64,000 nt of DNA, taken from IMG/VR virus record IMGVR_UViG_3300018080_000003, positions 79,728 through 143,727 of that record; one strand, written 5' to 3'. The notes beneath the pieces were generated by a model, which did not search any database, was not told the DNA's origin, and was given only the letters and a program-made list of their open reading frames with translations. The translations under genes and the position numbers were made by a program. The stretch comes from a virus. Numbering within the stretch: the stretch's first letter is position 1; every line of letters starts with the position of its first letter. Positions 39,518-42,452 of the stretch are shown here, piece by piece.

Positions 39518-39539
39518 CCGGGCTAAGATAACACTGATG
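39501..39539. promoter_or_regulatory. Overlapping divergent promoters for probable leaderless mRNAs
   Basis: + strand: TTCACG, 17 bp, TAAGAT, 7 nt, ATG. - strand: TGtTATCTT, 7 nt, ATG. Only 19 bp separate the two ATGs. Confidence 0.5.
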
Positions 39540-40397
39540 CGGGTTCTTGTCGTAGACGACTCCGAGACCGATCGGAGACTCCTCACAGCCATGCTGGAGG
39601 CGCAAGCGGATCGTGAAACAGGTCTGTTTCATCAGTTCGATGAGGCCGGTACGCTCGACCAAGCGTTGAAAATGCTTCGAAATCGAGAGCCCTACGACGT
39701 CGTGCTCCTCGACCTCAACCTGCCCGACTCCGAGGGGAAGACGACCTTTCAGCACCTCTACCCGGTCGCTCGGCCTACCCCCATCGTCATCTACTCCGGA
39801 CTCGACGACCAGACGCTGACCAAGCAACTCATCGCCGAAGGCGCCAGCGACTACATCATCAAGGTTCCCGGTCTGAAGGCAAAGCAGGTCCTCAACACCC
39901 TGATGATGACCGTTCAGCGGTCGCACTATGAGATCAGAGTCGCGCAAGACCAAGCAGAGGCGGTCAACAACGCAGAACGCGCCACAAAGACGCTCATCAG
40001 CGTCTCCTCACAGGCCCCTGAAAGCCAGGTAGGCAAAGAGTTCAACGTCGAAACAGAGCACCACGACCACCTGAGAGAGCACCAGAGAGCGCTAGCTCAC
40101 AGCATCGATGGGCTCTTCCAGATGATGAAACTCCAGGTCGAGAAGGATGCTCGACAAGACGAGGCGATCAACACTTCTCGTATCCGACAGGTTAGCCTCG
40201 AAGAGGCTCAGAAGGTGCTCGCTCGCGACAGCGTCTACCTCGAAGAGAAACAGAAGGAGATCAGCGTAGACCTGAAAACCTTCGACAAGAAGACCAAGCG
40301 ACAGCTTGCTATTCTCGCCTTCATGATCGCAGCCGGCGGCGCCGGCCTTCGCGATCAAGCCCCAGTCCTCTGGGAGTTCCTTACGAGTCTGATGTGA
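39537..40397 (+). CDS. Response regulator receiver domain fused to a coiled coil and C-terminal TM helix
   Basis: VLVVDD, LLDLNLPD, IVIYSG, DYIIK; C-terminal LAILAFMIAAGGAGL. Confidence 0.85.
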   Translation: MRVLVVDDSETDRRLLTAMLEAQADRETGLFHQFDEAGTLDQALKMLRNREPYDVVLLDLNLPDSEGKTTFQHLYPVARPTPIVIYSGLDDQTLTKQLIAEGASDYIIKVPGLKAKQVLNTLMMTVQRSHYEIRVAQDQAEAVNNAERATKTLISVSSQAPESQVGKEFNVETEHHDHLREHQRALAHSIDGLFQMMKLQVEKDARQDEAINTSRIRQVSLEEAQKVLARDSVYLEEKQKEISVDLKTFDKKTKRQLAILAFMIAAGGAGLRDQAPVLWEFLTSLM

Positions 40398-41449
40398 AAG
40401 TCCGAGAGTACAAGAACGCGCTTGAAATTGTTCCTGTTTTGGCTGTCATCTACAGCAACTGTCACAAGGAACCGAGCGATATCGTGGTGGACTACATCTC
40501 ATCGCACAGCCTAGAACGCTTCACGCCCGTCGCTGACCCCATCGGAAAGTCCATGAACGAGTTCGAAGGGTATGAGACGCTCGCCGAACAGATCCATAGC
40601 TGTGCAAAGACTGGAGAGTCAGATGATGTCCTGTTCAAGGATGAGCCTTCGTCGGGGTGGTTCGTAGGGTCGCTTCATCGAATCAACCGCCAACACGTGC
40701 TCATGACCTACAAGGACGTGAAAGAAATCGTGCTCGACAACATGGCTTTGGGGCGCGCTGCGGAGATCGCAAACAACAAGAACGAAAAATTCATCCGTGC
40801 ACTCGCTCATGACCTGAAAGAGCCTACCCGGGCCATCGTGGGGTTCAGCGAGATCTTGTTGACCCACTGGGACAGCGTCCAGCCGTCGCAGCGAGAAGAG
40901 TACCTTCAACACATCAACAGTGGAGCGTTGAAACTCCATGAAATGATCCAAGAGCTTCGCAACTACGCTCTGTCCGAAAAACCTGCATCCGATATCGAAC
41001 CCATCACCGCCAAGCGGATGATCCAAGAAGCAGTCGAGATGGCGAAGTCGAAGCTTCAGGAGAACAACAGCACGATCAGCGTCCGATGGTCGATCGATGA
41101 AGAAGTCATCGTTATCAGCTCGCTCAAGCGAGTCCTCTTCAACTTCATCGACAACGCCATCAAGTATCAACGCAAGGACGTGCCATCTGAGATTCAAGTC
41201 ACAGCCTTCTTGGAAGACAAAGACCTCGTCGTGTCCGTTCAGGACAACGGATTGGGCTTCGAGCCAGAAGACGCAGGAAGGATCTTCGAGCCCTTCCACA
41301 GGCTTTCTCCCCATCAAGAAACGCCCGGCGTCGGCATGGGGCTTGCCATCTGCAAAGATATCATCTCAAAAGTAGGCGGACGGATCTGGGGGACCTCCAA
41401 AGGGCTCGGCAAGGGCTCGCACTTTACCTTCAGAGTCCCCATCAGATGA
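40394..41449 (+). CDS. Soluble sensor histidine kinase (Cph1-like HisKA/HATPase)
   Basis: H box AHDLKEP, N box NFIDNAIKY, G1 DNGLGF, F box IFEPF, G2 GMGLAIC. Confidence 0.92.
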   Translation: MKVREYKNALEIVPVLAVIYSNCHKEPSDIVVDYISSHSLERFTPVADPIGKSMNEFEGYETLAEQIHSCAKTGESDDVLFKDEPSSGWFVGSLHRINRQHVLMTYKDVKEIVLDNMALGRAAEIANNKNEKFIRALAHDLKEPTRAIVGFSEILLTHWDSVQPSQREEYLQHINSGALKLHEMIQELRNYALSEKPASDIEPITAKRMIQEAVEMAKSKLQENNSTISVRWSIDEEVIVISSLKRVLFNFIDNAIKYQRKDVPSEIQVTAFLEDKDLVVSVQDNGLGFEPEDAGRIFEPFHRLSPHQETPGVGMGLAICKDIISKVGGRIWGTSKGLGKGSHFTFRVPIR

Positions 41450-41877
41450 AACGAAGCGCTAAAATCAAGGTTGTTGTCATGCATCTAGAGGATAGCGACT
41501 CAGACGCTATCCAGATTGAGCTTGCGCTCGATAAGGCTGCGCCAAACTGGAAGGATCACGCTACGATCTACCGAGCGAGAGACGTTCGTGAGGCCAGGAA
41601 GACGATCAAGAGCATCCGGCCCCAAGTCCTTCTACTCGACCTCAACCTGCCAGGGGTCTCAGGACATGAATTCCTCGTCGAACTGAAGAGTGACCCCGCC
41701 ACTTCTTCCATCCCCGTCCTCATCCTCAGTACGTCTGACGCCGACGGAGATGTCCTCAAGGCCTACCACAATTTCGCTTCATGCTACCTGGTGAAGCCTG
41801 CCAGCTTCGCCAAGCTCGTCGCCATCATGGGCGCTGTGAAGAAGTTCTGGCTCGAAATCGTGACGCTTCCACCATGA
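41446..41877 (+). CDS. Single-domain response regulator (Rcp1-like)
   Basis: LEDSDSD, LLLDLNLPGVSG, IPVLILSTS, CYLVKP, FWLEIVTLP. Confidence 0.92.
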   Translation: MKRSAKIKVVVMHLEDSDSDAIQIELALDKAAPNWKDHATIYRARDVREARKTIKSIRPQVLLLDLNLPGVSGHEFLVELKSDPATSSIPVLILSTSDADGDVLKAYHNFASCYLVKPASFAKLVAIMGAVKKFWLEIVTLPP

Positions 41878-42452
41878 GACCGAGCAGTTCAGACTTCACA
41901 ACACCACCGGAGCCGTTCACCTCCTTCGATGAGAGCGTCTGTGACCCTAGCCCCCAGCCTGGTGTCGTTCGCTTCAAGGATTGGGTCATGAGCGAGTGGG
42001 GCGGGCGAAGCCTAGGTATCGTTCGCGAGTGTGGTCTCACCGGCTCCACCAGTGGACACTACAGCGGCAGCGCCTGGGACTGGGGGCTGAACGCGAGTGA
42101 CCCTCAAGAAGCAGCCATCGCAGAGGACATGCTTCAGTGGCTGCTGAAGAACGACGCAGAGATGTTTCGACGTGCAGGCCTCGGCTACGTCATCTGGAAC
42201 AAAAAGATCTACTCGCCTCGCATCAGCACCTCTTGGCGCCCCTACACGGGAAGAAGCCCCCACACCGACCACGTCCACTTCTCCTTCGGGCCTGACGGGG
42301 CCGCGGGCAGCACGAGCTTCTTCGGCTGGCTTGATGGGCCCAAGAAGAAGAGCCCCGTGCTTGCCCCGAAGACCGTCGTGCCTGCGGTCGCAGGAGGAGT
42401 GCTCGGCTTCTTCGTCGTCACCTATCTTCAGAAGAGGCGTAAGGGCCGATGA
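41874..42452 (+). CDS. Peptidase M15-like (LAS fold) putative cell-wall hydrolase with C-terminal TM anchor
   Basis: SGHYSGSAWD (H-x6-D), YVIWNKKI, HTDHVHFS (HxH). Confidence 0.75.
   Translation: MRPSSSDFTTPPEPFTSFDESVCDPSPQPGVVRFKDWVMSEWGGRSLGIVRECGLTGSTSGHYSGSAWDWGLNASDPQEAAIAEDMLQWLLKNDAEMFRRAGLGYVIWNKKIYSPRISTSWRPYTGRSPHTDHVHFSFGPDGAAGSTSFFGWLDGPKKKSPVLAPKTVVPAVAGGVLGFFVVTYLQKRRKGR

Follow-up and report, generated by a model that had tools for sequence, protein, structure and literature searches.

A kinase and two receivers without DNA-binding output encoded beside a VldE-family peptidase gene in a large uncultured virus

To our knowledge, the decision systems of phages (repressors, arbitrium and captured quorum-sensing receptors) end in transcription control, and no direct precedent for a two-component system encoded by a phage came up in the literature searched, which is not proof of their absence. 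Here we describe a run of four overlapping genes, g1 to g4, encoding a receiver protein with a C-terminal extension, a histidine kinase, a single-domain receiver and a peptidase, in an uncultured bacterial virus of 144 kb (IMG/VR record IMGVR_UViG_3300018080_000003). The stretch analyzed, hereafter the window, comprises 64,000 nucleotides (positions 79,728 to 143,727 of the record) and forms the final 64 kb of a contig of 143,727 bp, whose ends overlap by 123 bp and which is recorded with direct terminal repeats and a CheckV completeness of 100. The best reading of this locus, given with moderate confidence, is that the virus carries an accessory phosphorelay with a non-transcriptional output, whose genes are co-transcribed with that of a conserved muralytic enzyme.

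For the kinase and the single-domain receiver, the closest described systems are Cph1-Rcp1 and CphA-RcpA, in which, as in g2 and g3, the gene for a HisKA kinase overlaps that of a downstream single-domain receiver of approximately 145 aa. Unlike Cph1-Rcp1, g2 is devoid of a phytochrome or GAF sensor and carries an orphan sensor of 125 aa, g1 provides an extra receiver, and the whole set is virus-encoded. The peptidase g4 shares family, fold, the zinc ligands H-x6-D and the expanded motif H-x-D-H-x-H with VldE of Streptococcus pneumoniae (Spr1875; PDB 9flh-9fln; PF26571), an L,D-endopeptidase that adopts a LAS fold and whose active site is M15-like (PMC11667670). In contrast to VldE, it has no LysM module, no signal peptide and no long linker, but a C-terminal transmembrane (TM) helix with a basic tail, and its gene is viral; furthermore, the pneumococcal gene is under the control of VicRK/WalRK through a DNA-binding regulator, whereas the two-component set neighboring g4 lacks a DNA-binding output. 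The VldE domain was first defined as motif 3 (MT3) of the phage TM4 tape-measure protein (PMC11667670). The likeness to TM4 lies in a muralytic domain that stands in a viral structural or, as predicted for g4, membrane context rather than in a classical soluble endolysin.

A further parallel is PBSX xhlA-xhlB-xlyA, where a helical region and one hydrophobic helix are likewise encoded upstream of a muralytic enzyme; unlike XhlA and holins, g1 has an N-terminal receiver and a short C-terminal hydrophobic stretch, shows no sequence or profile similarity to them and is not universally linked to the peptidase. Myxococcus FrzS and AglZ, like g1, combine an N-terminal receiver-type domain with a long coiled coil and have no enzymatic or DNA-binding output, but their receivers are pseudo-receivers and, unlike g1, they lack a hydrophobic tail. 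Finally, PRD1 P7 is a lytic transglycosylase associated with the virion membrane, to which g4 and a protein with an SLT domain encoded elsewhere in this genome may be compared.

An earlier sequence-only reading of this stretch had described four genes joined by GTGA/ATGA overlaps, with all phosphorelay residues apparently intact. The open reading frames (ORFs) and the junction sequences bear this out: g1/g2, g2/g3 and g3/g4 are joined by GTGA, ATGA and ATGA, respectively, with a TGA stop in each case and all genes on the + strand (Table 1), and the residues were read from the sequence and from ortholog alignments. Its descriptions of a soluble histidine kinase, an Rcp1-like receiver and an M15-like peptidase with a TM anchor, as well as of a first protein without DNA-binding or enzymatic output, were also upheld by the results given below. 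However, overlaps of 4 nt or 1 nt between stop and start follow 70 of the 272 candidate ORFs of this genome, so that those between the four genes are ordinary. They are taken to indicate co-transcription in a compact genome and not a dedicated functional link.

The kinase g2 consists of an N-terminal sensor (residues 1-125), a DHp domain and a CA domain, and matched the Pfam families HisKA (PF00512, E 4e-8) and HATPase_c (PF02518, E 1e-25). Its phospho-acceptor H139, which lies in LAHDLKEP, is invariant in orthologs, as are the N, G1, F and G2 boxes (DNAIKY, DNGLGF, IFEPF and GVGMGLAICK); the H-box HDLKEP resembles what we take to be the phytochrome-type sequence HDLQEP. No hydrophobic segment was found in g2 (best KD19 1.32). 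The sensor had no Pfam match at E values up to 10 and, as a four-sequence profile, nothing significant in the PDB (best E 0.13); it appears PAS-like by eye only. The receiver g3 comprises 143 aa and a receiver domain only (Response_reg, E 7e-14), with the residues E15/D16, D64, S94/T95 and K117-P, and its closest solved relatives are RcpA (2e-20), Rcp1 (4e-19) and RcpB (1e-16).

All four genes are under purifying conservation across lineages, at 61-94% identity. In four lineages (51-94% identical), no catalytic or acceptor residue has been lost and neither stops nor frameshifts occur. The sensor of the kinase is the fastest-evolving part (36-54% identical between lineages, compared to 77-88% for the g1 receiver and 67-83% for the catalytic domain of the peptidase). 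A scan of cellular genomes with a kinase profile revealed neither a close donor of g2 nor a clue to the host; since no cellular kinase exceeded 36% identity (best matches 26-36%) and the matches covered the catalytic core alone, the cassette kinase is not a recent capture from a host. These results, together with the highly conserved orphan tail of g1, speak against a passenger cassette without a role, i.e., a captured host operon that is carried along or decays beside an unrelated peptidase. The cassette is absent from more distant relatives and lies in a region prone to recombination, where a TnpB gene has been inserted and one lineage is rearranged. This would fit such a passenger, which we nevertheless regard as very improbable.

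Searches of isolated phages yielded little: tblastn with the kinase returned generic matches only (at most 31% identity), many of them from unannotated fragments or a misfiled bacterial record, a search with the peptidase gave 2 weak matches only, and megablast with 10 kb gave none. In IMG/VR, g1, the peptidase and the profile of the kinase all led to one and the same relative contig, along with one distant VldE. Within the viral genome itself, there are exactly 1 HATPase_c kinase and 2 receivers, so that the two-component set is self-contained and without DNA-binding output, and because no receiver in the genome binds DNA, the output of the relay would be non-transcriptional. The same genome gave no match to Terminase_6N, TerL_ATPase or HK97-type Phage_capsid, the three Pfam models searched.

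Two output-less receivers per kinase and the lack of a DNA-binding regulator in the virus could also point to a takeover of host signaling, in which the viral kinase and receivers would act mainly on host partners by phosphorylating host receivers or draining host kinases, with g3 as a sink for phosphate and g1 as a decoy at the membrane. Host behavior such as motility or envelope stress would thereby be reprogrammed during infection. The affiliation of g3 with a widespread cellular class of Rcp-type receivers and the likeness of the kinase core to generic cellular HisKA kinases are in line with this. However, the cellular kinases found share only approximately 30% identity with the viral one, a point against mimicry of any particular host partner, and the output half of g1 is virus-specific. 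We consider a takeover of host signaling unlikely.

The receiver domain of g1 (residues 1-120; Response_reg, E 1e-16) contains D7, D8, D59, S87 and K109, the latter in the context K-V-P and not K-P. It is followed by a long helical region (approximately residues 115-245), which was seen in a low-confidence AlphaFold2 (AF2) model from which secondary structure alone was taken, and by a Gly/Ala-rich hydrophobic helix at 257-271, LAILAFMIAAGGAGL. The protein ends in the tail GGAGLRDQAPxLWEFL, which is invariant among orthologs. For the C-terminal part (residues 125-286, 162 aa), a search of 5.8 billion proteins returned 4 homologues, which all belong to this virus clade, and an exhaustive HMMER search of 1.84 billion proteins revealed 1 representative, also from this clade. 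Neither Pfam nor PHROG, at permissive thresholds, contained a family matching this part, including XhlA and holins. With homologues restricted to the clade and no family assignment, the C-terminal half of g1 is thus an orphan output module. Since the hydrophobic stretch spans only 15 residues (KD19 1.22, compared to 1.92 for the TM helix of the peptidase), its insertion into the membrane is plausible but not established.

Accordingly, the description of g1 in the sequence-only reading as a receiver followed by a coiled coil and a TM segment stands for the receiver and, from the low-confidence model, for the helices, and is plausible for the TM segment. The further suggestion that g1 is of the XhlA/holin type finds no support, as the protein has neither a match to such a family, or to any other Pfam or PHROG family in its C-terminal half, nor a clear TM domain.

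The peptidase g4 comprises a catalytic domain (approximately residues 25-150), a linker, a C-terminal TM helix (residues 167-185) and the basic tail QKRRKGR. A search against a local copy of Pfam, from which PF26571 is absent, gave no match, while PF26571 ('VldE') was precomputed for all 16 homologues in a large protein collection. A profile of the 16 homologues matched VldE chains (9flh) in the PDB with an E value of 6e-7, followed at a distance by hedgehog N-domains. H62, D69, H130, H133 and H135 are invariant in these homologues and R51 is nearly so; the invariant residues align with the H-x6-D segment and HYDHVH of VldE, and R51 with the Arg of GYRP. In VldE, roles are assigned to H301, D308, H373, H375 and R294, the zinc ligands being His-x6-Asp and the His of HxH and the Arg serving the transition state (PMC11667670). 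An AF2 model of g4 (pLDDT 89.3) had VldE structures as its top 5 Foldseek matches (E 1e-7 to 5e-6, TMt 0.75-0.79), ahead of hedgehog, LdcB and MepA. Judged by alignment and model, g4 is a member of the VldE/MT3 family of L,D-endopeptidases, with an M15-like LAS fold and a predicted activity.

All viral homologues of g4 carry at their C-terminus a TM helix with an Arg/Lys-rich tail, which the Amycolatopsis and lectin-fused homologues lack. The anchor recurs in an unrelated muralytic protein of the same virus: the genome encodes 2 proteins with SLT domains, and one of them, an SLT transglycosylase (genome positions 64604-65296, - strand; L012:4604-5296), carries the anchor VAPAIAAGVLGFFAV, whose TM helix is nearly the same as that of the VldE peptidase, VVPAVAGGVLGFFVV (window 42380-42452), with a basic tail after each. 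The C-terminal end of the SLT protein reads ..VAPAIAAGVLGFFAVRMLRR and that of the peptidase ..VVPAVAGGVLGFFVVTYLQKRRKGR. Orthologs of both proteins, namely P0024 for SLT and the peptidase of a sister lineage, also contain the motif PA[VI]AxG[VI][LI]xFFxV. Such near-identical anchors on the unrelated SLT and VldE proteins suggest that the two have a partner or a sorting route in common, or that gene conversion has occurred. The best annotated PHROG for the SLT protein is a baseplate hub (1.8e-29), with one unannotated family scoring higher (3.3e-31), and by this assignment the phage relatives of the SLT protein are virion-associated. Candidate ORFs encoding a tail anchor and a basic C-terminus number approximately 20 in this genome, which, with its 144 kb and no match to the terminase and HK97 capsid models searched, represents an unusual lineage.

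The order of events at the locus can be read from its relatives, in all of which the gene for a helicase of the SNF2 family is the conserved anchor. The close relative L018 (82.9-kb contig) and L019, with a peptidase 61% identical to g4, have the same four-gene order with overlaps, and in the present genome (G000), L018 and L019 g1 adjoins the peptidase block. In another lineage (L001/L002/L016; IMGVR_UViG_3300012009_000157), the genes for the kinase, g3, the peptidase and o193, the gene downstream of the peptidase, form a block that adjoins a gene for a 1226-aa protein with a tyrosine-recombinase domain, and g1 remains beside the SNF2 gene, on the other strand and approximately 2 kb from the block. 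In the more distant relatives L007/L008 (peptidase 43% identical) and the P0004 and P0006 contigs, the order is SNF2 (-), small genes (+), VldE (+) and o193, with neither a kinase nor a receiver. Because these relatives keep the SNF2 and VldE genes without kinase and receiver, the peptidase is older than the cassette, which was inserted upstream of it in one subclade. The linkage to the peptidase, which the earlier reading had proposed to check by synteny, thus recurs in L018 and L019, but relatives without the cassette keep the peptidase and g1 is unlinked in L001/L002/L016.

Some details of this comparison are noted here in their own right. Between two lineages, the block of the kinase, g3, peptidase and o193 genes has moved and been inverted relative to g1 and the o61/o71 genes (window 39537-49729 compared to L001/L002/L016). 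The breakpoints lie at gene boundaries, beside the gene for a 1222-aa protein with a tyrosine-recombinase domain, and the kinase of the rearranged lineage is extended by 18 residues at its N-terminus. In another virus lineage (L004:2203-5133; peptidase 54% identical), the VldE gene begins four bases after the gene for a 771-aa protein with a GHKL-ATPase domain (HATPase_c_3, no HisKA), so that this peptidase family is preceded by a GHKL protein in a second, unrelated case.

These findings bear on signal-controlled lysis, the function proposed by the sequence-only reading, in which phosphorylation of g1 would alter its stalk in the membrane and either permeabilize the membrane, as a holin or XhlA would, or release or activate the VldE peptidase, and the cue sensed by the kinase would set the time of wall cleavage. 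In favor of it, g1, the kinase, g3 and the peptidase are co-directional and overlapping in three genomes, the linkage of the kinase, g3 and VldE genes survived the rearrangement, g1 has a helical stalk, a hydrophobic C-terminal helix and an invariant tail motif, and L007, without the cassette, has an unrelated protein with a TM segment and a helical region encoded upstream of the peptidase in the same position. However, the peptidase was at the locus before the cassette, g1 is unlinked and on the opposite strand in one lineage, its hydrophobic stretch is short, Pfam and PHROG gave no match of g1 to XhlA, holin or spanin families, stop/start overlaps are common across the genome, and the peptidase shares its anchor with an SLT protein of a virion-associated type. 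The neighborhood offers no support either, as the flanking genes (SNF2 helicase and the protein with a tyrosine-recombinase domain) belong to DNA metabolism and not to a lysis cassette. We thus regard lysis under signal control as rather unlikely, and a device for phosphorylation-gated lysis that co-evolved as a unit as unsupported, given the age of the peptidase, the separate location of g1 in one lineage and the anchor shared with SLT.

An accessory phosphorelay beside the peptidase gene remains the preferred reading. One subclade of a family of large uncultured microbial-mat viruses acquired the cassette between the SNF2 gene and a pre-existing core gene for the peptidase. The soluble kinase would use its orphan N-terminal domain, which evolves fast, to sense a cue in the cytoplasm, autophosphorylate on H139 and pass the phosphate to D59 of g1 as well as to g3, the Rcp-type receiver and probable ancestral partner of the kinase. 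The role of g3 may be that of a diffusible effector or of a phosphate sink. The output would most likely proceed through the conserved, clade-specific helical stalk and hydrophobic tail of g1 at the membrane. The peptidase is best read not as the dedicated output of the relay; it would instead be one of two paired muralytic enzymes with membrane anchors, the other being the SLT protein, and the pair would act on the wall at entry, exit or both.

Several observations weigh against this reading. The membrane association of g1 is uncertain given its KD19 value, and its AF2 model, built from four sequences, is poor (pLDDT 45). Moreover, it was the block of the kinase, g3, peptidase and o193 genes that stayed linked in the rearranged lineage while g1 was left behind, which is compatible with a functional link between kinase and peptidase. 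At the position of g1, L007 encodes an unrelated protein of 130 aa (7433-7825, + strand) with an N-terminal TM segment and a long charged helical region, for which the best PHROG is an unannotated family (E 1.5e-4) and which has no similarity to g1; this may be a hint that the position is conserved for a helical partner of the peptidase tethered to the membrane.

Table 1. Features of the locus, with positions in the window and the evidence for each assignment.
Feature	Position	Strand	Basis
SNF2-family helicase, divergent from g1	37775..39517	-	SNF2-rel_dom E 3e-38 and Helicase_C (Pfam)
g1, receiver with helical region and hydrophobic tail	39537..40397	+	Pfam Response_reg; orthologs begin at MRVLVV
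g2, soluble histidine kinase	40394..41449	+	HisKA and HATPase_c (Pfam)
g3, single-domain receiver, phytochrome-associated Rcp type	41446..41877	+	Response_reg; PDB matches
g4, VldE/MT3-family LAS metallopeptidase, tail-anchored	41874..42452	+	PF26571, profile, AF2/Foldseek
o193, unknown family, downstream of the peptidase	42614..43195	+	tblastn 77% L001/L016, 73% L019, 42% L007
IS605-type TnpB (OrfB/Cas12f-like), antisense in the + strand run	43558..44733	-	Pfam of L018 ortholog
Stable hairpin followed by CTTTT, terminator-like	45613..45646	+	fold -28.4 kcal/mol, z -3.8
1222-aa protein, tyrosine-recombinase domain	46061-49729	-	

Alternative ATG start codons of g1 are located at 39510 and 39462. 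The start codons of the SNF2 gene and g1 are approximately 20 bp apart (window 39517-39537) and would overlap if g1 began at 39510. Due to this short distance, the promoters of the two genes must sit inside the coding sequence of the other gene or far upstream. A scan with the sigma-70 consensus near g1 found nothing above chance, and neither start is preceded by an evident Shine-Dalgarno sequence. Downstream of g4, the + strand run comprises o193, the Cys-rich o113 and three small ORFs (two with a C-terminal TM segment), with the antisense TnpB gene between them; the run that begins with g1 probably continues through all of these and ends at the hairpin. Only G000 and L018 contain the TnpB gene, which L001, L016 and L019 lack.

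The true start of o193 is perhaps at 42752, and the protein had no match in Pfam, PHROG or NCBIfam. An LDEDDN motif, seen by eye, had suggested a RusA-like resolvase, an assignment that was dropped for lack of support from these three collections. Since o193 is conserved in L007 and the overlapping ORF o129 (42418-42807, - strand) is not, o129 was taken as a shadow of o193. Directly after o193 lies o113 (43192-43533, + strand), which encodes a small Cys-rich protein of 113 aa and is kept in the same position, at 37%, in L019. It gave a weak Pfam match to Toxin_13 (neurotoxin B-IV-like; E 3e-4), which probably reflects a mere cysteine pattern.

Elsewhere in the window, genes for a MoxR-type AAA+ ATPase (bpMoxR, E 9e-46) and then a VWA-domain protein (14141-16846, + strand) form a chaperone-like pair in a viral genome. 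Furthermore, ARAGORN identified an 80-nt tRNA-Ile(AAT) (37355-37434, + strand) directly 5' of a gene for a PTH2-like peptidyl-tRNA hydrolase (37447-37791, + strand; Pfam E 9.5e-6).

A more specific scheme, in which a membrane-tethered g1 gates the anchored L,D-endopeptidase together with its SLT partner, so that wall cleavage, be it at lysis, in particle maturation or for competence to enter, would be timed without a transcription factor by a cytoplasmic cue that the orphan sensor domain reads, appears unlikely to us. If functional, the complete and conserved set of a kinase and two receivers without DNA-binding output would represent a post-translational sensory circuit owned by the virus, in which g1 joins a receiver to a helical and hydrophobic module specific to the clade. 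Moreover, the newly characterized VldE family of L,D-endopeptidases now includes viral, membrane-anchored forms.

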